A stretch of DNA of 40,535 nt from a virus. Under the pieces are notes generated by a model. It was not told where the DNA came from. It saw only the letters and a list, made by a program, of their open reading frames with translations, and did not search any database. The stretch spans positions 1 to 40,535 of the IMG/VR virus record IMGVR_UViG_3300031576_000144. One strand, written 5' to 3'. A program made the translations under genes and the position numbers. Positions 906 to 40,535 of the stretch are shown piece after piece (positions within the stretch are counted from its first letter, which is position 1; each line of letters begins with the position of its first letter).

Positions 906-1402
906 GACATCTCTCCGAGCTGCTCGAGCGCCTCATCCAGGCGTGTGGCCTTAACCAGCCCCCCTTCGGAGTTCTTGTAGTCGTCCACGATGATCACGAC
1001 GTGGCGGAAGCCCTGCTTCTTGAGCGCCTTCTGCTTCTCCCGACATGCCTCTGCCTCGAGCTCAGTCGTGGGCTCGTCGACCAGGAGTGGGCCGCCCTTC
1101 GCGAATGGGAAGTACCGGCTCACGTACCACATGCGCGGACGACCGGGCCACCGATCGCGGCTCGCGAACTGGTCTGGGTACCAGTTTCGCATGTAAACAT
1201 TCGAGCCTGCCACCTGGGCCGCGAGGGTCGTGAACCGCTCGCCGGCGACCTCCTGGTGCTCGATCCTGGCCAGCGCCTTCTCCCTGCGCAGCGCGCTCTC
1301 GTCGCGCTCCTTGCTCAGCACCGGCTCTGAGTGCTTGATCGTACGCGCGGAAACCATGTTGCTCTTGGGGTCGATTCGTTCCTTCATTGATCGGATCTCC
1401 AT
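902..1402 (-). CDS. Hypothetical protein (head module)
   Basis: 166-aa ORF coupled to 252..905. An alternative start at ATG 1387 is preceded by GGAG. The start region is buried in inverted repeats. Confidence 0.7.
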   Translation of the reverse strand: MEIRSMKERIDPKSNMVSARTIKHSEPVLSKERDESALRREKALARIEHQEVAGERFTTLAAQVAGSNVYMRNWYPDQFASRDRWPGRPRMWYVSRYFPFAKGGPLLVDEPTTELEAEACREKQKALKKQGFRHVVIIVDDYKNSEGGLVKATRLDEALEQLGEMS

Positions 1403-1472
1403 CTCGATTTAAACGGACTCCCCCGGAGCAGGACTCGAGATGGAGATCTAGAGATGATCCACCCCGGGGGAG
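1394..1472 (-). promoter_or_regulatory. Interleaved inverted repeats (pseudoknot or alternative hairpins) covering the start of gene 902..1402
   Basis: 14-bp perfect inverted repeat at 1394-1407/1435-1448 and 9-bp perfect inverted repeat at 1418-1426/1464-1472, interleaved. Arm 1394-1407 contains the ATG at 1402-1400. Confidence 0.55.
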
Positions 1473-6975: not shown

Positions 6976-8210
6976 TCGTCGAAGTCTCCGGGGGGTTCGC
7001 TCTGGTCATCGCTGAGCTGGTCCTTTGAGACCGGAGCAGGAACGCACCGGCAGTTGAAGTGGGCCGGTGGCACGATAGCGTCGCATTCATCTCCGGCATG
7101 GTCAGCTTCGAGTTCAGCCTCGATCTCCGAAGTGGTCAACCCGTCTCGCCATACGCAACATTCATCGGTCCGGTCGTCGAGGATGGCGACCCACACGAAC
7201 TCGTCGATGCCGTTATCGTTGGCCGCCTGCACCTGGCCTGATCGGACGCGGTTCACAAAGTCTTGAGTCATCTGCTGCTCGAGCTCCCAGCCGTACATCT
7301 CCTCGAGCTCGGGGTCGCCCACGTCGACATCGAACACGTTCTTCGCGCTCCGATCGATGGGGATGTGCTTCGTCTTATAGTCGGCGACCAGGTCCCCCCA
7401 GGTCTCCTCGTCCACGAACCCCGTAGCGAAGGTCCGAGAGCCCAGCTTCGCCACCTGGGTGATCTCGACACCATCCTCCTCGTCGTCCTCCGGATCCCAT
7501 GGGGATCGCGCTTCTGTCACCCGCTTGAGGGTTCGGCCCTTGCTGGGTAGCGGTCGGGTGCTTGGGAACTTCTTCGAGATGCGCTTGAGGCAGTCAGCCA
7601 TGGGGGAGTTCATCGCGCGTGAGAGCTCCACGGCGTTCATGATCTCCCGGCGCATCCGGTTGAAGGCGAGCGCGATCCGGTCCGGGAGTGATTCTCCTCC
7701 ATCGAGAGCAGGGACTTGATCAAGATCGATCTGCTCCAGTTTCGCAGGCCGCCCCAGCGCGCGGCCGATCGCCTCCACCTCCCCCGCGTAGGCGAGGAGC
7801 TGGGACTTCTGCCCGAGGTCTACCCACACCCCCAGGATCTGCCCCCCGGAGTGGGTGAAGACCCGCTCGATCTGAGCCTCGATATCGTGGAGGATCCGCT
7901 TGCTATGCAGGACAAAAGCTGTTCCTGCGGAGAGGTGGCTGTACCGCAGATGCACGATCTCGAGCACCCGGATCAGGGCGTGCCGGAGGATCTCCGAGCT
8001 CCGCTTCTGAGCCACCCTGAGCAGATGCTCAAGCGCCTGGTCCCGCTGGTGAATGAAGTTGCGGTAGCGTTTTGACTGATTCAGCGCCATGCCGCGGGGG
8101 GGCTTGAAACCCTCACGGACCAGCCCGATACTTGAACTGTCATCGGGTATCCTTCCATGAGCGCCCCGGGGGCGAGTGCCTCCGGGGTTTTTACTTGTAG
8201 CCGACGCCAC
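6933..8210 (-). CDS. Minor head protein, Mu F / SPP1 gp7-like head morphogenesis protein
   Basis: The C-terminal motif ILDDRTDECCVWRDG...VPPAHFNCRCVP matches the Mu F-family signature (DxRT...PPxHxNCRC). The GTG start at 8210 is uncertain. ATG 8090 (MALNQSKRY...) is an alternative. Confidence 0.75.
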   Translation of the reverse strand: MASATSKNPGGTRPRGAHGRIPDDSSSIGLVREGFKPPRGMALNQSKRYRNFIHQRDQALEHLLRVAQKRSSEILRHALIRVLEIVHLRYSHLSAGTAFVLHSKRILHDIEAQIERVFTHSGGQILGVWVDLGQKSQLLAYAGEVEAIGRALGRPAKLEQIDLDQVPALDGGESLPDRIALAFNRMRREIMNAVELSRAMNSPMADCLKRISKKFPSTRPLPSKGRTLKRVTEARSPWDPEDDEEDGVEITQVAKLGSRTFATGFVDEETWGDLVADYKTKHIPIDRSAKNVFDVDVGDPELEEMYGWELEQQMTQDFVNRVRSGQVQAANDNGIDEFVWVAILDDRTDECCVWRDGLTTSEIEAELEADHAGDECDAIVPPAHFNCRCVPAPVSKDQLSDDQSEPPGDFDEWLNQMGRDRRQSD

Positions 8211-8409: not shown

Positions 8410-10724
8410 GACGCCAGCTTCGAGATGGCGATGAACACGCGATCCGTAGTCGCGCTAATCGTGGGAGTCCCGGCCGTGCTTTTGAGCTGTAACCGAATTG
8501 TGTCGCCGGAAGTTACAGACACCAGGTCACTCCCATGAGCGATTTCTGAAGCTGCTACCCCGGTCGTTCGATTGACAAACTCAGATTGCACCGTGCCATT
8601 CTTTTGAATTTGAGCGGCAACCGAGGACCCCGCGCCGAAGACCCCGTCAACTTCCACCAAGAAAAACACATTATAGTATCCGGTGGAAGGCACTGTGAAG
8701 GTACCCGCCGACATTGCACTATTGGTGTCAAAATCCGCCGTAGTCCAGGAGACAGTCGCGTAAGTGCTACTGATCGACGTTGCGCTACCATGATATCGAG
8801 CCCCGATGAGCGTCGGCGTGGGGGCACTCTGGTAGGTCGGGTCGGCGGCCGAGCCATTGCTCGTGAGCACTTGCCCAGAAGTCCCAGCCCCGGTAGATGT
8901 CATCGCGTTGGTTGCGCTCGCGATCACGACTCCTTGATTCGTCTGCCCCGAGATGGTCGTGTTTCCAGTCGCCGTGCCCACGAAACTAGACGCGGTCATG
9001 GTTGAAGTAGAAGTGACCGCACCGAAGAAGCCCGTACTCAGGTCTTGAGCGATCGACATCGCGGTAGCGGGTGTCACGCTCCCGTCTGGGGTCACCAGGA
9101 AGCTCAGTCTCCCAGGCATGTCGTTTGACCCAGGAGTGCCGTCAACCGTCGAAATAATTCGCGCTGTATTTTCGTAGTCCACTCCGTCATAGCCGAAGAA
9201 GTCAATTTGGCCAGAAGTGTCCCCGCTCGAAACAATCGTCGGGGCGGCAAAAGTCCCGCGAGATTTCGCAAACTGAAGTTTGCCGCTCTGGGTATTGGTT
9301 TGATGACGGATGACTCTGAACCCGCCTTGGTTTCCGTCGTTGTCATCGCTCACCGAATAGCTGGCGTAGTTCGCGGACCCTGAAACGGTTATCGGGTTAT
9401 CAGTCGGTGTAGTCCCCGCACCGAAGCGTAGCGTGTTACCCGACGCTGTCACGTTGAATTGACCAGTTGAATTCATCGACCCCGCTGCGGTGAGAGCTAC
9501 ACGGCTTGTAGCGTTTTGCTGAAAATCAAAAAGATTTCCGGTGAAACCCAAAGTCGCGTTGACGCCGAGTTCCGTACCGCTCGTACTCCACGCGGTTGAA
9601 GTCGCGCCGGACGGCTCGATCAGAAGGAAAGGTTTAGTCGTCGTCGAGGTGCCCCCAGTAAACGGGGCTCCGAAAAAATAGAGTGACGGAGTAGACGCCG
9701 CGCCTGGAGCCAATGTCCAAAACGGAACAGATGAAGCGACAAGGGTCGGAGTCATGGCGAATTTAGTAGCGCCATTCAGTTGAAAGTCGAAAAGATACCC
9801 GGTGAACCCGGAAGCGGCATTGACCCCTAGCGCGGTTCCGCTTGTGTTCCATCCTGTTGATGTCGTCCCAGTAGGCTCGATCAGCACATGAGGTTTAGTG
9901 GTCGTGGAGGTCCCCCCAGAGAACCACGATCCGCTCATTAACTGCGCTGGAGACGAGACGGTACTTGAAATGCCGGATAGTACCTGTCCGAAGAATTCAG
10001 AGATTTTACTACTATGCACCCGAAGAGCGATGACCGGGTCGAGAGATCCAGAGGCAGTCACTCTTAAGTTGATCCGTCCAGGCATACTGGTAGGGCTTGG
10101 AGTCCCGTCCGCTTCGGCACCGATGCTGGCAGCCGCCTCGAAACTCGTGCCCGTGTACCCGTTGTAAAAAGTAGTACCAAGGCCATTACCACTGGAGACA
10201 GCGAGAGGTGCTGCGTTGGTCCCCCTGGCCCTCGCTAGCATGATGATCGGATCAAACCCCGACGTAGAGTAGCTCTTCGCGAGGAGAGGAGCCTGATTGG
10301 TTCCAAGGTTATCGCTGGTTGAGAAACTTCCGAATAGAGTGAATGGGCCACCCGAGCCAGGAACACCGATCGTTATAGAATTATCCGTTGCGTTAGTCCC
10401 AGTGCTGAATCTGGCCGCACCGATGGCACCGTCGTTCTGAATTGTGCCGTTGAACTTAGCCCCCCTCCATCGGAATGGACCCGTGAGCGTCCCCAGATCG
10501 AACGCAGAGTCAGTCCCTGGGTTGATCGACGCGCTCGCAGCAGTAGATGCGATGTTGTTCAGCGTCGTCGTGGCTCCAGGAGAGAAACTCCCGGAAGTAA
10601 CACAGGTCGTATCAGGGAAACAGATTGCTGGAGTGAGAAGCTGAGCTCCGCTACCTCCCCAGATGATCGGCGGACCTGCGTGCGCGAGGGATGAGATGAA
10701 CAGGATCGGGAGGAAGAGATTCAT
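8406..10724 (-). CDS. Secreted tail-fibre-like protein with internal repeats and a C1q/TNF-like C-terminal domain
   Basis: True start taken as ATG 10724 (SD GTGAGG upstream). N-terminus MNLFLPILFISSLAHA|G looks like a Sec signal peptide. Fibre-type repeats (sRGTxAAPxxVSSGD...MPGRL, GGTSTTTKPxLIEP). The C-terminus (TFTVPSTGYYNVFF...SGDTIRLQL) is C1q-like. Confidence 0.65.
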   Translation of the reverse strand: MNLFLPILFISSLAHAGPPIIWGGSGAQLLTPAICFPDTTCVTSGSFSPGATTTLNNIASTAASASINPGTDSAFDLGTLTGPFRWRGAKFNGTIQNDGAIGAARFSTGTNATDNSITIGVPGSGGPFTLFGSFSTSDNLGTNQAPLLAKSYSTSGFDPIIMLARARGTNAAPLAVSSGNGLGTTFYNGYTGTSFEAAASIGAEADGTPSPTSMPGRINLRVTASGSLDPVIALRVHSSKISEFFGQVLSGISSTVSSPAQLMSGSWFSGGTSTTTKPHVLIEPTGTTSTGWNTSGTALGVNAASGFTGYLFDFQLNGATKFAMTPTLVASSVPFWTLAPGAASTPSLYFFGAPFTGGTSTTTKPFLLIEPSGATSTAWSTSGTELGVNATLGFTGNLFDFQQNATSRVALTAAGSMNSTGQFNVTASGNTLRFGAGTTPTDNPITVSGSANYASYSVSDDNDGNQGGFRVIRHQTNTQSGKLQFAKSRGTFAAPTIVSSGDTSGQIDFFGYDGVDYENTARIISTVDGTPGSNDMPGRLSFLVTPDGSVTPATAMSIAQDLSTGFFGAVTSTSTMTASSFVGTATGNTTISGQTNQGVVIASATNAMTSTGAGTSGQVLTSNGSAADPTYQSAPTPTLIGARYHGSATSISSTYATVSWTTADFDTNSAMSAGTFTVPSTGYYNVFFLVEVDGVFGAGSSVAAQIQKNGTVQSEFVNRTTGVAASEIAHGSDLVSVTSGDTIRLQLKSTAGTPTISATTDRVFIAISKLAS

Positions 10725-10732
10725 CGGATGCC

Positions 10733-17210: not shown

Positions 17211-17322
17211 GCTTCCTCTCCTCCTTCAGCTTCCTCTATTGAGCCGGCGAGAGGGGTAGTCCTCCCGCCGGTATGTCCTACTCTTTCGGTGTTCGACTTA
17301 GCGCATGGCCTCACCTCCCCTT

Positions 17323-17574
17323 TCATAATCGTTTGCCTTCCCGCTTCTCCTTCGCCCGCTTCATCGCCAGCCACTCCGGCCCCTCGGGGCACGCGTGGAC
17401 GTGGCTCACGAAGGCGTCGGTACGCACGGCCTTCATGTCTCCGAAGATGTCCTTCTCGATCGAGTAGCAAGCGGCCTTCCGGTCCAGCGGTACGGACTTC
17501 TTCGTGGAGTCGCAGTAGGCGAAGAAGATCATCCGGCGGCAGTCCTTGCAGGGGCGGATCGAGAGGTTGTTCAC
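17323..17574 (-). CDS. Small Cys/His-rich protein (83 aa)
   Basis: GTG 17574 overlaps the stop of the J-domain gene (GTGA). Contains CKDC ... HVHAC. The longer track ORF (to 17823) is an out-of-frame extension across the upstream gene. Confidence 0.6.
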   Translation of the reverse strand: MNNLSIRPCKDCRRMIFFAYCDSTKKSVPLDRKAACYSIEKDIFGDMKAVRTDAFVSHVHACPEGPEWLAMKRAKEKREGKRL

Positions 17575-18167
17575 GCGCCCTTCTCCGCCCGGGCCGTCTC
17601 GATCGCCCGGTTCATGGCCTGCATCTCCGCGGCATCCCCGCCCAGGTCCGGGTGCAGCTGCTTCGCCCGCATCTTGTAGGCGAACTCGATCGCATCCAGC
17701 GGCCACTCCTGAGAGCACCCCAGGACGGTCCACCAGTCCGGATCTGGCTCGACGTGGCCGGCTGGCGGGGGCAGAGCGGTGAAGCCCTGGAAGACCCGGT
17801 CGAGCATGTCGCTCGCGCCCCACCGATCCAGCCCGCGCATCGCCTCCACCGTGAGCCCGATCGCCCGGAGGTTATCCTCGATCCTCTCCCACCGGTCGCA
17901 GGCGATCGACAGCGGCCGGCCCTTGCGGTGGAAGTAAACCGCCACACCCGGGTCCTCGATCCTCCGCTCGGCCGCGTACGGCTGGCCGTCCTTTCGGATC
18001 GGCTGGTTGGTTGAGATGATCACGTTCGTGACTCGCATAAGTCGGAGCTCGTTCTGCACCGACCAGAGTCCGCCCGCCCAGGTCGACTTGAACTTCGCCC
18101 GGACTCGCCCGAGAGGCTTCGTCCTTTTGAACGCTACCGGCCAGTCCAGCGGATACGCTTCAGGCAT
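17571..18167 (-). CDS. J-domain (DnaJ-like) protein with an uncharacterised N-terminal domain
   Basis: ATG 18167 overlaps the upstream stop (ATGA). The C-terminus WWTVLGCSQEWPLDAIEFAYKMRAKQLHPDLGGD carries the HPD tripeptide in J-domain context. Confidence 0.7.
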   Translation of the reverse strand: MPEAYPLDWPVAFKRTKPLGRVRAKFKSTWAGGLWSVQNELRLMRVTNVIISTNQPIRKDGQPYAAERRIEDPGVAVYFHRKGRPLSIACDRWERIEDNLRAIGLTVEAMRGLDRWGASDMLDRVFQGFTALPPPAGHVEPDPDWWTVLGCSQEWPLDAIEFAYKMRAKQLHPDLGGDAAEMQAMNRAIETARAEKGA

Positions 18168-18658
18168 CAGTACGCCCCGCTCAGATTCTTGCCGTCGACT
18201 TCTGCCGGAGCCTCGGGCTTGAGCCACTTGCGCTTTAGCTTCTTGCCGGCCAGGGGGAGATCCGCCTGCCGCTCGGAGTCTTCCATCGCCCGCTCCTCGA
18301 CCATGAACCACTCGCCCTCGCGCTCGACATAGAAGCGGATCAGGTTCTGCTCGAAGACCTTCTGCATCACGCAGTCCACCAGCCTGAGCTCGGAGCCTGA
18401 CTTGATCTCGCCCAGGAGCCGGTCGCGGTCCTTCTGCACCCGGCGGATATTCGCGGCCGTGCCCTTCGCCTCCTCCTTCCAGCCCTCGATACTCTTCGCG
18501 CAGGTCGCCGCCTCCTGCGCCTTCTCGGCGATCTCCTTATCCGAGAGCGGGATCGTCAGCTCCTTCTGCAGGGCCACCCCCGTCGGCGCCTCCTTCATCA
18601 GCTTGAGCTTGCGCTCCTTGGGTGCCTTCGTCTTCGCTGCCTTCTTCGACTTGCTCAT
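18167..18658 (-). CDS. Hypothetical protein with a Lys-rich N-terminus (163 aa)
   Basis: ATG 18658 (MSKSKKAAKTKAPK...) is preceded by GAAAGGA. The upstream VTVTV part of the track ORF is a repeat-derived shadow. Confidence 0.65.
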   Translation of the reverse strand: MSKSKKAAKTKAPKERKLKLMKEAPTGVALQKELTIPLSDKEIAEKAQEAATCAKSIEGWKEEAKGTAANIRRVQKDRDRLLGEIKSGSELRLVDCVMQKVFEQNLIRFYVEREGEWFMVEERAMEDSERQADLPLAGKKLKRKWLKPEAPAEVDGKNLSGAY

Positions 18659-18677
18659 GCATTCCTTTCTGCTGTTC

Positions 18678-18941
18678 TCAGTCACCGTCACCGGAACCGT
18701 CACCGTCACCGGAACCGTCACCGGAACCGTCACCGGAACCGTCACCGTCACCGGAACCGTCACCGTCACCGTCACCAGAACCGTAACCGGAACCGTCACC
18801 GTAACCGGAACCGTCACCAGAACCGTAACCGGAGACGTAACCGTCACCGTAACCGGAACCGTCACCGTAACCGTAACCGGAACCGGAGACGTGCTGACTT
18901 TCCTCGCCGAGAGAACCGATCAGTCGCAGTGCTTCGCCCAT
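18678..18941 (-). CDS. Acidic (Gly-X)n dipeptide-repeat protein (87 aa)
   Basis: ATG 18941 has GAGGAGG 5 nt upstream. A 17-aa leader is followed by about 35 G-[D/S/Y] dipeptides encoded by the hexamer repeat. Confidence 0.55.
   Translation of the reverse strand: MGEALRLIGSLGEESQHVSGSGYGYGDGSGYGDGYVSGYGSGDGSGYGDGSGYGSGDGDGDGSGDGDGSGDGSGDGSGDGDGSGDGD
18681..18890. repeat. Tandem hexanucleotide repeat, 35 units (GTCACC / GGAACC / GTAACC variants)
   Basis: Parsed directly: 35 consecutive hexamers with the pattern NNNACC, using five variants. All three minus-strand frames stay open. Confidence 0.95.
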
Positions 18942-19195: not shown

Positions 19196-19469
19196 GTCTC
19201 CACCTTCCGTTATCTAGTTTCCACCCAGCGAGTTCTAACCAATGACCGATCGCTGGGTACTTCTCGGCCATGTATTTCAATCCCCTGCGGTGCCGCTCCT
19301 GGTGACAACGCCTGCACAAAGGCAGGAGGTTCTCCGCCACATCATCGCCGCCCGCGCCTCTCGTCCTAACATGGTCGGCATCAGAGGGTGTCCTCTGGCA
19401 ACCCATACATGGCAGGGTCCGCACCAGCGCCAGGAGTCCCTTGTCCACGACTCGCCTTCGCTTCAGCAC
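19119..19469 (-). CDS. HNH-type endonuclease-like protein
   Basis: PCMGC...DADHV...NLLPLCRRCHQERH fits the Cys4/HNH motif arrangement. GTG start. Long overlaps with both neighbours. Confidence 0.5.
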   Translation of the reverse strand: MLKRRRVVDKGLLALVRTLPCMGCQRTPSDADHVRTRGAGGDDVAENLLPLCRRCHQERHRRGLKYMAEKYPAIGHWLELAGWKLDNGRWRHERLEDCDRGTAEGLGLRGQADDGS

Positions 19470-19677
19470 GGTTGAACGCCTTCACGGCAAGATCCATCGA
19501 GCGGGCGTGCTCCTCCGGAGAGACCGGCCGAACCCCGTAGATCGCGGCACCTGGTTGCGCCAACCCTCGCCCGCGGCAGCGAGGGCAGAGCTCGAGTCGG
19601 TCTGGCCCCCCCTCCCGATGCGCCATCAGCCATACTTCCCCGGCTCCGCCGCACGTTGCGCAGATCCCTTCTGTCAC
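19381..19677 (-). CDS. Zinc-ribbon protein with DnaJ-type CxxCxGxG motifs
   Basis: CATCGGAG and CPRCRGRG. GTG start overlaps the upstream stop (GTGA). Confidence 0.55.
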   Translation of the reverse strand: MTEGICATCGGAGEVWLMAHREGGPDRLELCPRCRGRGLAQPGAAIYGVRPVSPEEHARSMDLAVKAFNRAEAKASRGQGTPGAGADPAMYGLPEDTL

Positions 19678-20042
19678 GACTCCTCCCTGGCGAGATACGC
19701 CTGCCGCTCGATATCCCGCGCGATCTGCTTCTTCCTAAGCTGCCTGCGCGCGGCCTCGATAAGGACGGTCGCTGCGTCCCGATACTCCTCCGCTGCCGCG
19801 TCCACGAGATCCTGATCTCCACTCTCGACTGCATCCCTCAGCCACCCTTCCGCTTCATCCCACTTCTCTCGGAGCCCGATGTCAGTCAGGGCATCCATCA
19901 GGGTGGGGAGCACCCGAAGGCCGAGTACCGCTTCGCCCCCCCGATCCCGAATACCTAACGACGTGAGCGCGAGCTCAACCTGATTTACGACGCGTCCGAA
20001 CTGCACGGCCGAGCACCTCCCCTTCGGTGTAGGTCGTTCCAT
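19674..20042 (-). CDS. Hypothetical protein (122 aa; start uncertain)
   Basis: ORF downstream of the helicase gene. ATG 20042 would overlap the helicase by 68 nt with a weak SD. Confidence 0.5.
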   Translation of the reverse strand: MERPTPKGRCSAVQFGRVVNQVELALTSLGIRDRGGEAVLGLRVLPTLMDALTDIGLREKWDEAEGWLRDAVESGDQDLVDAAAEEYRDAATVLIEAARRQLRKKQIARDIERQAYLAREES

Positions 20043-20892
20043 CGCTCGTGAAGATCAGCCGGTGATTCGTGTAGACCCCCCGCCGGCGCATCTTCCGGAG
20101 CGTGATCACCCGGTCAAGCGGAGTCCGGACGTCGTTCTCTATGTCCTCCTCGCTCGGCGGGTTGAAGAGCAGCACGTTCTGCGCCTCCTGCACCGAGGTG
20201 GATGAGCCCTTGATATCGTTCTCGCTCTCCACCAGGCCGTCGACCTTGCGCGGGTGCATGACCTGGATCCAGTGGATCGGGGCGTTCTTCGTGAAGTCGA
20301 TCATCCGGTGGGTCACCCGGTCCTGCTCGATCATCCAGGCGCGCTCGTCCTTCACCTCGAGGAAGTAGTTCAGGTTATCGGTGATCGCGATCGTGCACTG
20401 GTGGACCTGCTTCGCGTGCCAAATATCGTCCATCAGGATGTCGGGGTCCACGCGGTCGTCGTACACGCTGAGCTGGACCCGGTCCGTGAGGAAGAAGTCG
20501 GCGTGCTTCGAGTTGATCGACTGCAGGCGCTCCGCGTGGACAGAGTCCCCCGTGTTTACATCGAAGCCGTGGACCACGGAGATCATACGCTTCACGAAGT
20601 CCGAGTCTCCCGTCTCGACAGGGGCCACGAAGAGTCGGTGGCCTGCCATCACGAGCTGCACCGCGATATTAGCGAGCAGTGTGGTTTTTCCTACCCCCGT
20701 CCCGCCACAGAGAATCGAGTACTCACCTAGACGGAAGCCCCCTGTCAGCCAGTTGAACTTCGTCCAGTTGTAGAGCTTCGCCGATGGGAAGGGGCGCGCG
20801 AGCTCGCCCATGGCCTGCCCGTACACGTCGCCGATCGAGCGCATCCGGATCTTATGCTCTCGCTTCGGGCGGCGGTGGGGGGCCAGCTCCAT
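19975..20892 (-). CDS. DnaB-like / RecA-fold replicative helicase (P-loop ATPase)
   Basis: ATG 20892 overlaps the upstream stop (ATGA). Walker A CGGTGVGKTT. The layout resembles the DnaB C-terminal domain. No N-terminal DnaB domain or primase domain is present. Confidence 0.6.
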   Translation of the reverse strand: MELAPHRRPKREHKIRMRSIGDVYGQAMGELARPFPSAKLYNWTKFNWLTGGFRLGEYSILCGGTGVGKTTLLANIAVQLVMAGHRLFVAPVETGDSDFVKRMISVVHGFDVNTGDSVHAERLQSINSKHADFFLTDRVQLSVYDDRVDPDILMDDIWHAKQVHQCTIAITDNLNYFLEVKDERAWMIEQDRVTHRMIDFTKNAPIHWIQVMHPRKVDGLVESENDIKGSSTSVQEAQNVLLFNPPSEEDIENDVRTPLDRVITLRKMRRRGVYTNHRLIFTSDGTTYTEGEVLGRAVRTRRKSG

Positions 20893-21233
20893 CACGGGAT
20901 CACCTCTCCCGTGGAAGTCATGCCCGGGATCTGGATCGACTGACCTCCGCGGGGGGGATTGCCATTCGGCTTCAGCGGGTTCTCGATGAAGTCCTCCCAC
21001 TCGCCGGCGAAGGTGGAGAAGTGCTTCACGTACTGGTCCTCGGTCTGCTCCCGTCTCACCAGGGCAGCGTAGTGGAGGACCGCGAGCTGGAACTGAGCCA
21101 GGCGCTCGGGGGTCTTGATCTGGCGGAGGAGGCGGTCAACCCCCTTCTTCTTCCCGCGGTGCCGCGGGTACTGCAGGTACGCTTCCTCGATCGCGCGGCG
21201 GATCTGACTGCGATCCATGATCTCCATCTCCAA
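20892..21233 (-). CDS. Hypothetical protein (first gene after the terminator; possible helicase partner)
   Basis: 113-aa ORF coupled to the helicase gene. Three in-frame ATGs lie at the start (MEMEIMD) within GGAGATGGAGATCATG. Confidence 0.65.
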   Translation of the reverse strand: MEMEIMDRSQIRRAIEEAYLQYPRHRGKKKGVDRLLRQIKTPERLAQFQLAVLHYAALVRREQTEDQYVKHFSTFAGEWEDFIENPLKPNGNPPRGGQSIQIPGMTSTGEVIP

Positions 21234-21382
21234 ATTGAAAGGGCCAGTCAGCTATCCTTCGCGAGGAAACCGACCGGCCCTGGATCACCTTGCTTGGGGC
21301 ACGGTGAAGCATTCAAACTTGGGGTCCTCGCGAAGTGCCTCGAGGATTAAAACGAGTTCGGTCGAGAGTCCACCGAAATAAT

Positions 21383-21416
21383 AAAAAAGGGCTGGACCTT
21401 GCGGACCAACCCTTTT
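21383..21416 (-). terminator. Rho-independent terminator (strongest on the minus strand)
   Basis: 10-bp arms at 21389-21398 / 21403-21412 with a 4-nt loop. On minus-strand RNA, 9 of 10 positions pair (one G-U) with loop GCAA, followed by UUUUUUAUUAUUU. On the plus strand it has two mismatches and a shorter U run. Confidence 0.8.
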
Positions 21417-21833
21417 ATGTTCCTCGTCGCTGAACAGAGAACGGATCCTTCTTCGCACGTTCGTGCGGAAAATACCATTCCAAATCAGCCCGGCTCGATG
21501 AGCGAGATGCAAACGACGTAGTTCGAGCCGGTGAGAGTGGTCGGCGGTGAGTTCATTCGACCAGCCGTGGGATGCAACCCTTTGGGGTTCAGGTAGAGCG
21601 GCGAACGGTGGGGCGTCTTGAGCCCTATATAGTCTGCCTGGGGGCTTCCGGTCTTTGACCCGGCGGCCTGTCTCGAAACGACGGCTCGTCCGGGGGCGAT
21701 CGAATGAGAGACATGTTTCGACTCGCTGCACTTTTTAGTGCCAGCCTGGTTAGGAAACGTGTCTCTCACTCTGGTCTGAACCGAAAGCTGACCCCTCTCT
21801 TAAAGGCAGGAACAGTGAGCAAGGAGAACTAAA
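21417..21833. other. Long structured non-coding region (candidate ncRNA and/or rnhA leader)
   Basis: No credible ORF in six frames. Stems at 21452-21469, 21490-21498/21523-21531, 21576-21589, and a 14-bp stem 21706-21719/21754-21767 enclosing hairpin 21728-21741. Confidence 0.5.
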
Positions 21834-22319
21834 ATGAACTCTGCTGAAGCAATGAGCGTGTGGACCGATGGATGTTGTATGCCGAACCCAGGAGTCGGTG
21901 GCTGGGCGTGGGTCACTCGAGCGGGGATGCGAGGACCGCACGCTCAAGGCAGAGATGCCTTCTCGACCAACCAGCGGATGGAACTCATGGCTGTGATTCA
22001 CGCGCTCGAGCAGAACCCTGGCGCGCCTATGCGGATCCACTCTGACAGCCAGTACGTGATCCTCGGAGCCACGAAGTGGTCGAGGAGCTGGCTGGCAAAC
22101 GGTTGGAAGAATTCGCAGCGAAAGGATGTCGCGAACCGCGAGCTCTGGGAGCGCCTCCTGCGTTCTATAGCCGGCCGGTCGATCGAGTTTATTTGGGTCA
22201 AAGGCCACTCCGGGGATGAGATGAATGACCTGGCTGACGATCTCGCCACGCAGGCTACGCGCCTGAATCCTAAAGTGATTGAGCGATACCGACGAATGTA
22301 CCATGGAGCGCCCGCTTAA
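21834..22319 (+). CDS. rnhA: Ribonuclease HI
   Basis: WTDGCCMPNPGVGGWA, TNQRMELMAVIHAL, IHSDSQYV, WVKGHSGDEMNDLADDLA give the complete RNase H1 motif set (D-E-D-D). SD AAGGAGA upstream. Confidence 0.9.
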   Translation: MNSAEAMSVWTDGCCMPNPGVGGWAWVTRAGMRGPHAQGRDAFSTNQRMELMAVIHALEQNPGAPMRIHSDSQYVILGATKWSRSWLANGWKNSQRKDVANRELWERLLRSIAGRSIEFIWVKGHSGDEMNDLADDLATQATRLNPKVIERYRRMYHGAPA

Positions 22320-22729
22320 AACCCCAGCTCCGGCTCGATCGGAGCGTCGAAGTCCGGGCCTGGGTTCGGATCCACCTGCTGCATCCCCTTGCCGAGATCC
22401 CGAGGCTTCCCACCCGTGAGGCAGCGAACGGTGATCGCGTGGATCTCGGTACCCCGCTTGCGGTACCCATCCTTGCCGACCCACTCCCGGGTGACGAGCT
22501 TGCCCTCGACGAAGACGAGGACGCCGGTGAGGAGGTAGGGCTTCATCCTCCTGGCCAGCCCGCCCCAGAGAACGACACGCATCCACTCCGTGGCCTTGTT
22601 CTCCACGCCCCGCTTATCGATCCAGCGATCGGTCATGCCGATAGAGAAGGTCGCGACCGGGCCGCCCGCGGTGTCTCGGAGCTCAGCGGTCTTCCCGATC
22701 CAGCCGATGCAGGTGGCGCGGTTGAGCAC
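22316..22729 (-). CDS. ssb: Single-stranded DNA-binding protein
   Basis: OB-fold SSB N-terminus (LNRATCIGWIGKTAELR...ATFSIGM...TEWMRVVLWG) and an acidic C-terminal tip DFDAPIEPELGF. GTG start. Confidence 0.85.
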   Translation of the reverse strand: MLNRATCIGWIGKTAELRDTAGGPVATFSIGMTDRWIDKRGVENKATEWMRVVLWGGLARRMKPYLLTGVLVFVEGKLVTREWVGKDGYRKRGTEIHAITVRCLTGGKPRDLGKGMQQVDPNPGPDFDAPIEPELGF

Positions 22730-22753: not shown

Positions 22754-23380
22754 TTACAAGTCCGGGAAGTCGCGCGCGAGATGGGCGTCGCACTCCGACT
22801 GCTTCTCGTGGGGGCAATCGCCCGTGCTGCACGCGTGATCCTCACGGTTGAAAGCTATCTCGGGTGCCGGAGTCGAACCGACCGTGGCCGACGCTGCCGC
22901 ATCCCCACCGCCCGTGGGAGGACCCGAGTTCAAGGCTTCGCGAGCGCGTTCGACTGCACCGATTTTATCCCGGCTCCCGTATGCCGTGCGCAAATCCTCA
23001 ATCGCTTGCTCCAGAGCCCCCAGAAATCGGGCGTTCTCCTCTTCGAGCTGCGCGAGCACGTCTGGGCAGGTGACCGTGATCTCGATCTTCGAGTACTTCT
23101 GGAAGTCGCACGCTTCGAGGATCTGCCGAAGAGCCGCGGCCGTTCTGCCACATCGATTGGGTGTAACCCATGTCGCCCGGAAGACCTGGCGCTCTACCGG
23201 CTGAGCTGCCTCCCCACGTGCGAACAGTATCTTGATCTCGTTGGCAACTATTTCAAGCTGGCAGATGGCGAGCTCGTAGGCCGAGTATACGGTGCCGCCA
23301 GGCTTCGCGCCCGCCATCTTCAGGACATCCTTCGCGATCTGATCGTTGATCACCTTCAGGACCTGATCGAGCGTGACCAC
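22754..23380 (-). CDS. Hypothetical protein (208 aa)
   Basis: Protein-like ORF between erf and ssb, abutting the erf stop. Confidence 0.7.
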   Translation of the reverse strand: MVTLDQVLKVINDQIAKDVLKMAGAKPGGTVYSAYELAICQLEIVANEIKILFARGEAAQPVERQVFRATWVTPNRCGRTAAALRQILEACDFQKYSKIEITVTCPDVLAQLEEENARFLGALEQAIEDLRTAYGSRDKIGAVERAREALNSGPPTGGGDAAASATVGSTPAPEIAFNREDHACSTGDCPHEKQSECDAHLARDFPDL

Positions 23381-24438
23381 TACCCGAACTCCTTGCAGCT
23401 CGCCTCGAAGTCGGGGTTATGCCGCAGGAAGCCCATGAGCACCTTCGCCTGGTCGGCATTCAGCTCGGTGATGGTCTCGACCTTCCATGCCAGCTTAGCG
23501 TACGCGTTGCCCTGGGCGATCGTCCAGCCGGCCACGGTCAGTGCCTTGATCAAGTCCTGTGTAGACTTCTTGCCTCCCCCGCCAGCTGCCTTGCCTTTAG
23601 GCGCGGGAGGGGTGGGTCGAGGCTCAGGCGCAACGGGGGGAGGAGTCGATCCTGGGGCATCCTCGCGCGTCTGGGGAGGTTCACTTTTTGACGCCTCAGT
23701 TGAGGGCCGGATACCCGGGGCGTCATTGAACCCCTGGGCCGCCGCCTTCTCGAGGTACTCGCAGAAGTCCAGAAGTTCCGTGTCGCTGAGCTCCTTCGAG
23801 GTGTTCTTGCCGTACCGCTGCAGTGTGATGCCGGTCATGAACTTCGCGTTCTGGGGGCACGCCTTCTCGAAGGACTTGAATGCCTTGCCGAGCCGATCAA
23901 AGAGAGCGCCTCGAGCTGCGGCCACGGTCTTCGCCCCTACCGTCTGACTCGGCTTCGTTCCAGACTTCGCGACAGGCTTCCCAGCGGGTCGGCCCACCTC
24001 CTCCTGTCGGCCGTGCTCCGGGTCGTCCGCAGGCTCGTCGGTGGGGATGCAGAAGATCTGCACGGCCATGTACTTGAAGGCCACGGACATCGACTTGCTC
24101 GAGCTCTTATCCCCGGTGTCCTGCGCCTCGCCTACCGTGATCACCGTGACGCTCGACCCGTCCTCTGCGCAGAGGGTGAACTTCACCGTCATGATCGAGA
24201 AGGTCTGCTGCGCCCCGCTCTTCGTCGTCCTCGGCTCGCGGATCTGGCTCAGCACTTCGGTCAGCACGAACACCTTATGCTCGACGAAGGCGGGCTTCAG
24301 GGCGAGCAGGACGTCGTCGATCCCGCGGAACTTGTACCCCTGCTCGCTGGTGCGGCCCTTCTTCACGGCGCTCAGGTCGGCGATGATCTTGGGTATCCTG
24401 GAAAAAATAAGACCGGGCTTGTCTGAATTCGTTGCCAT
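23380..24438 (-). CDS. erf: ERF-family single-strand annealing recombinase
   Basis: The N-terminal domain has GYKFRGIDDVLLALKPAF and GDKSSSKSMSVAFKYMAVQIFCIPTDE, resembling the P22 Erf core. The C-terminal half is low-complexity and Pro/Lys-rich. Confidence 0.75.
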   Translation of the reverse strand: MATNSDKPGLIFSRIPKIIADLSAVKKGRTSEQGYKFRGIDDVLLALKPAFVEHKVFVLTEVLSQIREPRTTKSGAQQTFSIMTVKFTLCAEDGSSVTVITVGEAQDTGDKSSSKSMSVAFKYMAVQIFCIPTDEPADDPEHGRQEEVGRPAGKPVAKSGTKPSQTVGAKTVAAARGALFDRLGKAFKSFEKACPQNAKFMTGITLQRYGKNTSKELSDTELLDFCEYLEKAAAQGFNDAPGIRPSTEASKSEPPQTREDAPGSTPPPVAPEPRPTPPAPKGKAAGGGGKKSTQDLIKALTVAGWTIAQGNAYAKLAWKVETITELNADQAKVLMGFLRHNPDFEASCKEFG

Positions 24439-24661
24439 GGGCGCGAGCTCCTTTGGTTGAAACCCTTCTACCCCGGGCGAGCTCGCGGATCACCCAAGGT
24501 AGAAGGGTCGAAGCGGACACAGGCCATGACACTCATGTGGGGAGAAAAACCCGGACCCGCTGGATAGCTGCGGACCCTAATATATAGGCCGGCGGAGTGG
24601 AAGTGGAAAGTAATGTCACAGTGTGATATCATGACATCAGAAGTAGAAGGAGTACCCCGCC
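24439..24661. promoter_or_regulatory. Divergent early control region (putative promoters and operators)
   Basis: This 223-bp gap is the only divergent one. Contains an 11-bp inverted repeat 24462-24472/24498-24508 enclosing palindrome GCGAGCTCGC (24477-24486), the AT-rich box TAATATATAGG, palindrome TCACAGTGTGA (24616-24626) and ATGTCA-N13-TGACAT. Confidence 0.55.
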
Positions 24662-25014: not shown

Positions 25015-25184
25015 TCATCTTCGCCGTCGCCCTGGTCGGAGTCTGGATCGCCTATGAGGTCGGGCACTGGAGAGGCCATCGAGGAGCTGTCCGCCGCGGG
25101 ATCGAGTCTCTTCAACGCCGATCAGATGAACTTGAGCGGCAGTACCAGGCTCTCCTATCCCGCTTCGAAAGGAAGGACCGGTGA
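25011..25184 (+). CDS. Possible small membrane protein (57 aa), in conflict with the 5' end of the next gene
   Basis: ATGA overlap with the upstream stop. MIIFAVALVGVWIAYEV is TM-like. The codon bias is good for the first 14 codons only, and it overlaps 25054..26067. Confidence 0.3.
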   Translation: MIIFAVALVGVWIAYEVGHWRGHRGAVRRGIESLQRRSDELERQYQALLSRFERKDR

Positions 25185-26067
25185 GCAGGTGAAGATCGAG
25201 TACACCCCGAAGAAGTTCAAGCCGTCGACGCTCGCCATGATCGAGCAGGCGAACGTGATCATAGCCGACTACCAAGCCCAGGGCTTCGAGCTCACCCTCC
25301 GCCAGCTCTACTACCAGTTCGTTTCCCGGGACCTGATCCCAAACACGCAGCGGTCCTACAAAATCCTGGGCTCCGCGATCAACGACGGCCGTCTGGCCGG
25401 GCTGATCGACTGGGAAGCGATCGTCGATCGCACGCGCAACCTGCAGAGGAACTCGCACTGGGACTCCCCGGCTGAGATTGTTGAGACCTGCGTGAAGTCC
25501 TACGCGATCGATAAGTGGGCCGATCAGGAGAACCGCCCCGAGGTCTGGATCGAGAAGGACGCCCTCGCCGGCGTGATCGAGGGCGTCTGCCGACGGAACG
25601 ACGTCAGTTACTTCTCGTGCCGTGGATACACCAGCCAGAGCGAAATGCACGCGGCAGCTCTCCGGCTGATGCGATACCAGGAGAACGGCCAGACCCCCGT
25701 GATCATCCACCTCGGCGACCACGATCCCAGCGGCGTGGACATGACCCGGGATATCCAGGACCGGCTCGAGCTCTTCACTCGCGGCGAGCTCACGGTGAAC
25801 CGCATCGCCCTGAACATGGACCAGATCCGGAAACACAAGCCCCCGCCGAACCCATCGAAGATCACCGACCCCAGGGCGACGGGCTATCTCAAGATCCACG
25901 GCCGCCAGTCCTGGGAACTCGACGCGCTTGAGCCAAAGGTGCTCGACCGCTTGATCGAACGAACGATCATGGCACTTCGTGATGACGCCCTATGGGAGGC
26001 GGCGGAGGCCAGAGAGGCAGCGGATAAAGACGAGCTGCGAGAAGCAGCGGAGAGGATGGGTCATTGA
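25054..26067 (+). CDS. Stand-alone Topo VI-A / Spo11-like protein (5Y-CAP + Toprim; Mini-A-like)
   Basis: TLRQLYYQF (candidate catalytic Tyr in a winged-helix context), Toprim Glu in VWIEKDALAGV and DxD in IIHLGDHDPSGVDM, in the same order as Topo VI-A. Alternative start GTG 25189 follows GGAAGGA. Confidence 0.55.
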   Translation: MRSGTGEAIEELSAAGSSLFNADQMNLSGSTRLSYPASKGRTGEQVKIEYTPKKFKPSTLAMIEQANVIIADYQAQGFELTLRQLYYQFVSRDLIPNTQRSYKILGSAINDGRLAGLIDWEAIVDRTRNLQRNSHWDSPAEIVETCVKSYAIDKWADQENRPEVWIEKDALAGVIEGVCRRNDVSYFSCRGYTSQSEMHAAALRLMRYQENGQTPVIIHLGDHDPSGVDMTRDIQDRLELFTRGELTVNRIALNMDQIRKHKPPPNPSKITDPRATGYLKIHGRQSWELDALEPKVLDRLIERTIMALRDDALWEAAEAREAADKDELREAAERMGH

Positions 26068-40007: not shown

Positions 40008-40502
40008 TCATGCCCCCATGAAGTACTTCTTCAGCGCCTTGCGCATCTTATCGATCGTGACCTTCCCGAATCGCATGTAGGGGCGGATCTTGTTCGTGAA
40101 CTTAGCATACGAGAACGGTCGGCCCTTATACGCTGCGACCTGCACCCCTGGATCGAGGGACACCTCGAACACCTTCGGGGTGATGAGCCGGCGGTGGGCG
40201 GTCAGGTCTTCACCAGTCACGTTCTTCACCAGGAAAGAGGACTGAACCATCATGACATTCCCGGCTCCAGGAGCTCCGGCCCACCGTTTCCGCTTGCTGA
40301 TCTTCGTCGCTGGACTCAGCTCCGCCCAGCGGTCCCCCTCGCTGGAGTTCTCCGTCTCCCACCGCCGCTTCTGGGAGGCGACATAGATCTTGTAGATGTC
40401 CCTGGCGAACATGGCCTGAGCGTTCCCAGCCTTCGCGACCAGGCCCTTGTGGAACTCCTCTACCGCGTTCTTCGTGTTGATGAGTCCAGATTTCCCAGCC
40501 AT
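40008..40502 (-). CDS. Head-tail joining / virion morphogenesis protein (HK97 gp10 / Mu gpG-like)
   Basis: 164 aa. The segment RRWETENSSEGDRWAELSPATKISKRK...VMMVQSSFL resembles virion-morphogenesis/tail-completion families. Its start codon lies in the terminal repeat. Confidence 0.45.
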   Translation of the reverse strand: MAGKSGLINTKNAVEEFHKGLVAKAGNAQAMFARDIYKIYVASQKRRWETENSSEGDRWAELSPATKISKRKRWAGAPGAGNVMMVQSSFLVKNVTGEDLTAHRRLITPKVFEVSLDPGVQVAAYKGRPFSYAKFTNKIRPYMRFGKVTIDKMRKALKKYFMGA

Positions 40503-40535
40503 CAGCCTTCACCGTTCGCACGAACGACGAGCTCG
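40409..40535. repeat. Terminal direct repeat, copy 2 (identical to 1-127)
   Basis: Same 127 nt as the window start. The unit genome length is therefore 40408 bp. Confidence 0.95.

Follow-up and report, generated by a model that had tools for sequence, protein, structure and literature searches.

A structured non-coding gap between an initiator-like gene and rnhA in a metagenome-assembled phage genome, tentatively read as a lineage-specific regulatory junction

In the phage genome analyzed here (IMG/VR record IMGVR_UViG_3300031576_000144; the whole stretch of 40,535 nt is referred to below as the window), a minus-strand gene for a 108-aa initiator-like protein and a plus-strand rnhA gene are divergently oriented on the two sides of a non-coding gap. 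This gap is structured, on both strands, beyond shuffled sequences and beyond the background of the genome itself. The best reading is that of a regulatory junction peculiar to this lineage, which may double as a replication origin; a new gene for a conserved RNA is not favored. Our preferred account, a lineage-specific composite junction that is not the gene of a conserved RNA, is a tentative one, to which we would give somewhat less than an even chance.

The window is a metagenome-assembled phage genome in which bases 1-127 are repeated at 40409-40535; it therefore represents a circular assembly of 40,408 bp. An identical sequence is present in ENA (ERZ27247320, k141_2009330). Its structural and packaging genes encode a lambda-family portal, a Mu-F-like protein, a Mu gpT-like capsid protein and a large terminase, and a methylase is also encoded. 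Among the ORFs scanned in the genome, no polymerase, primase, RNA polymerase or integrase was found. Cultured phages yielded no match to the helicase at E ≤ 1e-10 and none to the 108-aa protein at E ≤ 1e-3. The genes of the replication/recombination block that contains the gap, together with the sequence elements discussed below, are listed in Table 1.

Table 1. Genes of the replication/recombination block and elements of the non-coding gap (positions in the window)
Feature	Position	Strand	Remarks
DnaB-like helicase gene	19975-20892	minus	An HNH protein is also in the block
108-aa initiator C-domain gene	20892-21218	minus	phrog_270 'replication initiation protein', E 2.6e-6
Whole non-coding gap, 615 nt	21219-21833		Between the 108-aa gene start (minus) and the rnhA start (plus)
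~17-bp hairpin (21240-21281), then UUUCAAUUU	21231-21281	minus	~20 nt upstream of the SD/ATG of the 108-aa gene
Perfect 11-bp inverted repeat, CTTCGCGAGGA / TCCTCGCGAAG	21257-21267 / 21325-21335		57-nt spacer
Intrinsic-terminator-like hairpin	21383-21415	minus	Stem 21389-21412, GCAA loop, then U6
Small 7-bp hairpin	21452-21469	plus	z -3.0 plus, -1.7 minus
Perfect 9-bp stem (21490-21498/21523-21531)	21490-21531	both	24-nt loop; z about -3 on each strand
Near-perfect 70-nt hairpin	21702-21771	plus	62 nt before the rnhA ATG; outer stem of 18 bp enclosing hairpin 21728-21741
rnhA (RNase HI, 161 aa)	21834-22319	plus	SD AAGGAG at 21821-21826; Pfam RNase_H, E 2e-37
ssb	22316-22729	minus	Stop codon overlaps the rnhA stop (TTAA, 22316-22319)
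Gene for a 208-aa protein			Listed between Erf and SSB
Erf gene	23380-24438	minus	

The initial annotation had described a non-coding region of about 600 bp at 21234-21833. Its non-coding character stands, while its left edge had to be moved: the left neighbor starts at ATG 21218 and not at 21233, so the gap begins at 21219 and measures 615 nt. Public gene calls for the contig (L031, offset 18726) leave 21219-21833 empty. In a GC frame plot, codon periodicity is absent from the gap, the third-position GC signal ending at ~21200 and returning in rnhA. The ORFs of the gap have codon log-likelihood ratios (LLR) of -0.47 to +0.06 per codon and GC3 values of 0.36-0.69, against 0.5-0.6 and 0.87 in the flanking genes, and none of them matches Pfam or PHROG, which bears out the earlier judgement that they are of junk composition. 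The sole ORF with a non-negative score, of 94 aa on the minus strand, gave two weak matches only (E 1.6e-5 and 3.9e-4) in an exhaustive HMMER search of ~1.84 billion representatives; both are to giant proteins and look repetitive, because several stretches are matched. A hidden small protein was sought by six-frame peptide comparison among rnhA gaps, as well as by Pfam, PHROGs and HMMER of the best ORF, and all of these were negative. Judged by codon bias, ribosome-binding site and homologues, the gap is not a protein-coding gene, either as a small protein or as a pseudogene of an initiator N-terminal domain. The other true intergenic gaps in the genome do not exceed ~230 nt, and those other low-scoring stretches that were inspected or that span long ORFs (8410-10732, 17211-18166 and 19196-19673) are coding; the gap is therefore, as first proposed, by far the largest non-coding stretch of this genome. 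Its GC content is 0.55, compared with 0.62-0.65 in the flanks, and the lowest regional GC (0.48-0.50) is found at 21300-21390.

The region had also been called dense in stems, and folding agrees. Compared with dinucleotide shuffles, the whole 600 nt has z scores of -4.5 on the plus strand and -6.7 on the minus strand. As a genome background control, the MFE of 805 segments of 300 nt per strand was regressed on GC. The segment 21501-21800 ranked 2 of 805 on the plus strand and 106th on the minus strand, while on the minus strand 21201-21500 and 21151-21450 ranked 1st and 2nd, and 21401-21750 was unremarkable. Every stem listed in the initial annotation exists at its reported coordinates. Taken singly, the elements that reach significance include the long hairpin, the terminator hairpin, the perfect 9-bp stem, the plus-strand hairpin at 21452-21469 and the 17-bp minus-strand hairpin at 21240-21281. 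The stem at 21576-21589 is no better than shuffles, and the same is true of 21636-21700. The z score of 21205-21378 is -3.4 on the minus strand versus -1.1 on the plus strand; the structure is therefore particular to the strand that is sense for the 108-aa gene. In the distal part, the plus strand is the more unusual one against the genome background, whereas by shuffling the minus strand is at least as low (z -6.05 for minus 21383-21833, terminator included, versus -4.0 for plus 21422-21833), so the strand of the distal part is ambiguous. An asymmetry in G-runs favoring the plus strand (6 versus 1, counted by eye) was dropped, as it is not clearly above rough expectation.

On the minus strand, the hairpin at 21383-21415 has the GC-rich stem-loop and the U-tract of an intrinsic terminator, GGGUUGGUCCGCAAGGUCCAGCCC followed by UUUUUU. 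The region 21380-21421 folds with -20.5 kcal/mol (z -6.3) on this strand and more weakly on the plus strand (-14.8 kcal/mol, z -3.2, U4 tail), and the earlier argument that the terminator pairs better on the minus strand is sound. A simple terminator scanner missed this stem because of one internal U-U mismatch. An AAAGGGYYRG motif, present three times in the window and always in the gap, was rejected: it was defined post hoc, and two of its copies are the two arms of the terminator. Also set aside was CCCTATATAG: it is similar to a box of the control region upstream of Erf and is unrepeated in the genome. On the initiator side of the terminator, the predicted MFE fold of the 5' region pairs part of the tract just upstream of the 108-aa gene SD (~21229-21235). 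The inverted repeat originally given as 10 bp (21257-21266/21326-21335) is real and in fact extends to 11 perfect base pairs; it lies 40-115 nt upstream of the C-domain gene, near the position of the iteron-like repeats of related phages.

The long hairpin upstream of rnhA is among the best local inverted repeats of the genome, with 16 of 18 positions complementary between 21702-21719 and 21754-21771. Folded as 78 nt (21698-21775), it has -37.1 kcal/mol on the plus strand (z -5.9) and -34.6 kcal/mol on the minus strand (z -6.5). The plus-strand advantage is just 2.5 kcal/mol, because each strand has one wobble and one mismatch; thus, of the proposal that its 14-bp stem pairs better on the plus strand, the small edge holds, while the strand assignment drawn from G-U asymmetry is weak. 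The 7-bp alternative pairing of 21673-21679 with 21715-21721 is real. The hairpin is not a terminator, because a U-tract is missing 3' of it on both strands. It is a candidate RNase III-type processing or stabilizing site, or a candidate translational or kinetic control element; compared with the ~20 bp or more of double-stranded RNA in a UTR expected of an RNase III-type site, it offers an 18-bp outer stem plus inner helices at -37 kcal/mol.

The rnhA gene opposes minus-strand neighbors on both sides and is convergent with ssb. Because the overlapping stop codons of ssb and rnhA leave no room between the two genes, the Erf-SSB transcript has no earlier terminator, and the first good one for this strand is that at 21389-21412. 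A minus-strand RNA running antisense over rnhA and ~420 nt of the gap is therefore plausible, as a 3' UTR and not as a separate gene. Accordingly, of the ~400-nt terminated minus-strand RNA that had been proposed at the end of the Erf-SSB transcript, we retain the terminator and the 3' UTR, but not the separate gene. In composition, rnhA is foreign, with a GC3 of 0.67 and an LLR of 0.17 versus 0.87 and 0.5-0.6 in its neighbors. Its closest cellular homologues are from Acidimicrobiales (~50-54% identity), and relatives of the helicase (45-52% identity, on ~40-kb contigs) have neither rnhA nor the gap at this position. The GC3 of rnhA and the GC content of the gap, both lower than in the flanks (GC3 0.87, GC 0.63), suggest that the gap and rnhA may have been acquired together.

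The covariance-model scan proposed in the initial annotation was run and recovered no RNA family at gathering or relaxed thresholds. At gathering thresholds, no Rfam model matched anywhere in the window, be it of a riboswitch, ribozyme, small RNA, leader, group I or II intron, tmRNA or 6S RNA; with E relaxed to 10, the segment 21000-22000 gave just look-alikes of miRNA precursors and PK-BYV, with 14-16 bits against thresholds of 50-100, and the miRNA precursors are the sole weak look-alikes of the long hairpin. No tRNA or tmRNA was found. Searches by blastn of 50,697 phage records and of 72,556 plasmids detected no DNA similar to the gap, nor did nhmmer and blastn searches of ~250 loci fetched from the surroundings of related rnhA and helicase genes. 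The rnhA loci collected comprised 30 from IMG/VR, 80 from JGI metagenomes and 80 from GTDB, plus the individual contexts of the closest homologues. Two of the six closest homologues with readable context have a long gap upstream of rnhA, namely L032 (62% rnhA identity) and L033 (50%; on a phage contig that also encodes Erf). Both gaps are ORF-free, fold well and measure 500-575 nt; they have no Rfam match, and no sequence, peptide or alignable motif is common to any of the three gaps, that of the window included. A 'CAGAAC..ATC' motif that seemed to follow putative promoters in the window, in L032 and in L033 was discarded after it failed on alignment. In the next four homologues (P0005, P0007, P0009 and P0010), the upstream gene lies within 0-150 nt of rnhA, and a long upstream gap is present in only about one-tenth of the 80 metagenomic rnhA loci. 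These long gaps are mutually unrelated, save for pairs, none with the window as a member, that are closely related or almost identical. Since the L032 and L033 gaps are unrelated to ours, the next four homologues have no long gap and such gaps occur in a minority of the loci, we recognize no family of rnhA leaders. The plus-strand regulatory leader for RNase H put forward initially is thus not upheld as a conserved element, nor is a functional non-coding RNA upheld as a conserved RNA. The lineage-specific reading follows from this, as nothing resembling the gap was found elsewhere.

In our preferred reading, the starting points are the non-coding status and excess structure of the gap, the geometry of the terminator, the gene arrangement, the foreign composition of rnhA and the absence of homologues; the promoters, the direction and ends of the transcripts and all regulatory effects are what we infer. 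The foreign rnhA with ~420 nt of upstream DNA would sit reversed between ssb and the initiator/helicase genes, in the place taken by the N-terminal half of the initiator in related phages. The intrinsic terminator (21383-21415) would end the leftward minus-strand transcripts of the Erf-SSB operon, which would run antisense over rnhA and its upstream region and form a long antisense 3' UTR that could interfere with rnhA expression. The proximal part (21219-21382) would hold the start signals and structured 5' UTR of the initiator-C-domain/helicase operon, including a second hairpin with a U-rich tract. With this second hairpin and the paired tract upstream of the SD, the operon would be expressed through read-through or attenuation, if not from a local promoter. 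The distal part (21416-21833) would contain the rnhA promoter and a long structured leader, doubling as the antisense 3' UTR, in which the 70-nt hairpin may be a processing, stability or translation-control element.

Several observations speak against such a junction. Sigma-70-like promoters matching at least 9 of 12 positions were not found in the gap, though strong ones are present elsewhere in the phage (27287, 8699 and 24604). The only promoter-like sites of the gap (8 of 12) flank or overlap the terminator hairpin, on both strands. Shuffle z scores give the minus strand of the distal part no less structure than the plus strand, and 420 nt is long for a leader.

Based on tblastn and alignment, the 108-aa protein corresponds to the C-terminal domain only of a replication-initiator-like protein, which related phages encode ahead of the DnaB-like helicase; no word-indexed homologues of the 108-aa protein were found. 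The full-length protein, of 195-290 aa, is present in at least 12 relatives and carries one of three unrelated N-terminal domains. Iteron-like or tandem repeats occur in the initiator linker of five of six relatives examined, 50-120 nt upstream of the part coding for the C-domain: L240 has three 21-22-bp palindromic units, L200 has four units spaced by 10 bp and L215 has three, and the tandem repeats of L229 and L206 are shorter. An origin located inside the initiator gene is the lambda O arrangement; in lambda O and P22 gene 18, iterons and an AT-rich region lie between the N- and C-terminal domains. With respect to the initiator C-domain and helicase genes, which it adjoins, the gap is placed like these origins, where the N-domain and repeats of its relatives would be. 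In contrast to a lambda-type origin, with at least three initiator-binding repeats beside an AT-rich region, the gap contains no iterons; it has just weak two-copy repeats, a 14-bp AT-rich tract, hairpins and the one 11-bp inverted repeat. The initiator N-domain is absent from the gap and from the rest of the genome according to tblastn and three HMMs, and no k-mer enrichment beyond AT-rich words was detected in the gap.

A replication origin had been the third option of the initial annotation, and it is now the one with most new contextual support, because the gap adjoins a truncated initiator-like gene; iterons or a GC-skew signal did not accompany this context. It is the main rival of the junction and is compatible with it. 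An iteron-free origin, in the whole gap or in its proximal part (21219-21420, with the 11-bp inverted repeat, the AT-rich 14-mer and hairpins), would replace the iteron/N-domain arrangement of the relatives, with initiation by transcription or hairpin-based priming, helicase loading by the C-domain protein and possibly recombination help from Erf and SSB. We consider this possible, if unlikely. The lack of both the N-terminal domain found in 12 relatives and the lambda O-like linker repeats, the presence of the 11-bp repeat near their position, the GC minimum at 21300-21390 and the location of the gap inside a module of Erf, SSB, RNase HI and helicase all argue for it. This evidence is purely positional, however: besides the missing repeats and k-mer signal, the AT-rich tract of ~14 bp is short for an unwinding element, the genome yielded no origin-binding domain, and the cumulative GC skew has no origin signal at the gap. 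We attach the lowest probability of all to RNA-primed, RNase HI-assisted initiation, with an R-loop or a processed-RNA primer, as the replacement for the lost N-domain and repeat arrays. In this picture, the transcribed, structured gap and the horizontally acquired RNase HI would start replication in a tailed phage by a mechanism like that of ColE1 or mitochondria, the C-domain-only protein being a mere helicase loader.

The strong minus-strand terminator at the far end of the gap and the low z score of minus 21383-21833 could also mark a free-standing minus-strand non-coding RNA of ~400-450 nt, with its own promoter near the rnhA start and its end at 21389-21412, that would regulate either rnhA or replication, in an antisense or a structural role. 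The 575-nt rnhA gap of L033 offers a parallel, an A8 tract and hairpin at its far end that amount to a T8 terminator opposite to all L033 genes, but a plus-strand promoter matching 10 of 12 positions overlaps this element, and the overlap suggests that the element should be read differently in L033. We regard such an RNA as improbable: no promoter-like site was found on the minus strand near 21770-21833, neither an Rfam family nor a homologue of any kind was recovered, the minus strand of 21401-21750 does not stand out from the genome background, and read-through from ssb accounts for the terminator without a separate gene. Quite improbable, too, is that the gap is decayed coding or junk DNA, either the eroded N-terminal half of the initiator or DNA dragged in with rnhA, its hairpins being functionless save for the terminator. 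A 148-aa minus-strand ORF (21285-21731) shares the frame of the 108-aa gene, with only two stop codons between them, the combined ~278 aa would fit the length of the full-length relatives, and the region has no homologue anywhere searched. Nevertheless, a shared frame has a one-in-three chance, the ORF has no homology or coding signal (no residual GC3 bias, LLR -0.29), neither tblastn nor HMMs revealed similarity to the three N-domain types, and structure well above shuffles and genome background is unexpected for decaying coding DNA. The 8-of-12 sites that flank the terminator raise an alternative in which the palindrome is an operator between back-to-back divergent promoters. A minus-strand promoter (-10 TATTAT, 21383-21378) would drive the helicase operon, and a plus-strand promoter (-35 TGGACC, -10 TATGTT, 21393-21421) would drive rnhA with a ~405-nt leader. 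These sites are roughly symmetric about the dyad, A-rich, UP-element-like tracts lie upstream of them, and L033 has a comparable layout, with the A8 tract, a hairpin and a promoter of the form TTTACA-18-TATAGT on the far side of its rnhA gap. Matches of 8 of 12 are nevertheless under the scanner threshold and common by chance, and the hairpin with U6 fits a terminator very well (-20.5 kcal/mol), so that we hold the operator to be very unlikely; the operator and terminator readings are mutually compatible.

Compared with known systems, the 11+2-bp GC-rich hairpin with its A-run and T-run flanks at the end of a leftward operon resembles the intrinsic bidirectional terminators of phages. It differs from phage operon-junction terminators in lying ~930 nt past the last gene of the operon, because an opposite gene and its upstream region intervene, and its function is putative. 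The long hairpin is a candidate counterpart of RNase III hairpins such as the T7 R-sites and the lambda N leader/sib, being likewise long, near-perfect, in a presumed UTR and devoid of a U-tract. The atypical composition of rnhA, its opposite orientation and its absence at this position in the helicase relatives are shared with morons and foreign cassettes; a classical moron brings its own promoter and is followed by a terminator, whereas the terminator here is upstream of rnhA and the 3' end of the gene overlaps ssb.

By functional analogy only, the gap may also be likened to the origins of ColE1 (RNA II/RNA I) and to the R-loop origins of T4, T7 and mitochondria, as ~0.5 kb of structured non-coding DNA with potential transcripts from both strands. 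Its position beside RNase HI and a helicase whose relatives are labelled 'twinkle protein' by some sources would fit this analogy. A ColE1-like origin has a preprimer promoter ~0.5 kb upstream, an antisense RNA with three stem-loops and an RNase H cleavage site, and at the T7 origin RNase H reportedly antagonizes replication. Unlike these origins, the gap has no Rfam match, no identified promoter and no plasmid similarity; Rfam presumably includes ColE1 RNA I and GOLLD/ROOL, none of which the gap matches. If the gap is only a regulatory junction, it is a routine case of how phages arrange terminators, leaders and antisense overlap where a foreign gene has been inserted, and its main value lies in the annotation: no gene in the gap, a terminator at 21389-21412 and a truncated initiator adjoining it. 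If it were an origin, one family of ~40-kb phages would have swapped an iteron/initiator origin for a structured non-coding region plus RNase HI, which would provide a natural handle on the swapping of phage replication-initiation modules.

The 108-aa gene that borders the rnhA upstream gap (window 20892-21218, minus strand) encodes the C-terminal domain alone of a replication-initiator-like protein whose counterparts in related phages measure 195-290 aa and have an N-terminal domain belonging to one of three unrelated types. This N-terminal domain is absent from the entire genome of the window's phage. Of the six relatives examined, five have iteron-like or tandem repeats in the linker of the initiator-like gene, a lambda O-like layout in which the origin is embedded in the gene. 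The 12-mer GAGATGGAGATC, a start-region context that codes for M-E-I, is found where two unrelated minus-strand genes begin (window 1394-1448 and 21221-21232); at 1394-1448, it additionally forms a perfect 14-bp inverted repeat.

Coordinates of control-region, hairpin and repeat features in the window and in related phage loci
Feature	Sequence	Coordinates	Position
Divergent control region	Window	24462-24508 and 24576-24632	Upstream of erf
A8 tract and interrupted hairpin	L033	5444-5494	Start of gap
Long near-perfect hairpin, ~72 nt overall	L033	5837-5908	93-164 nt upstream of ATG
Linker repeats	L240	3069-3132	
Linker repeats	L200	2987-3075	
Linker repeats	L215	3045-3099	
Linker repeats	L229	627-688	
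Linker repeats	L206	3098-3125	

In L033, an Erf-carrying phage contig whose rnhA is 50% identical to that of the window, a 575-nt gap lies upstream of rnhA. Its A8/hairpin element overlaps a sigma-70-like promoter with a 10/12 match (TTTACA-18-TATAGT). The layout of this gap parallels that of the window's gap, although the two share no sequence similarity.

The sequence TTAA at window 22316-22319 comprises the overlapping stop codons of the convergent rnhA (plus) and ssb (minus) genes; since this overlap leaves no space for a terminator, each transcript must enter the other gene in antisense. The composition of rnhA (window 21834-22319) is atypical for the genome, with a GC3 of 0.67 versus 0.87 for its neighbours, which suggests horizontal acquisition. 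Its nearest cellular homologues, with ~50-54% identity, are found in Acidimicrobiales, a possible hint of the host lineage.

The divergent region upstream of erf is probably the early switch region; it contains a CCCTAATATATAGG box, a promoter-like site with an extended -10, and an inverted repeat of 19 nt that is 84% complementary and has a spacer of 9 nt. Farther along, the 337-aa protein encoded at window 25054-26067 matched PHROG 6247, 'DNA topoisomerase', very strongly (E 1e-110), and had no match in Pfam.

Positions 1-127 of the window are identical to 40409-40535; this 127-nt overlap of its ends makes the contig a 40,408-bp assembly that is circular (or terminally redundant). The top canonical terminator-like hairpin of the genome (window 8163-8188) has 11 bp, 9 of them GC pairs, with TTTTT directly after it. 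It belongs to the plus strand but lies within a block of minus-strand structural genes, so that the coding strand shows an A-run first and the hairpin after it. A tandem array of ~15 copies of ACCGTCACCGGA-like units, with periods of 12 and 18 nt (window 18642-18923), sits inside the minus-strand ORF 18167-18865, where it codes for a (V/P)T-rich repeat at the N-terminus of the protein.
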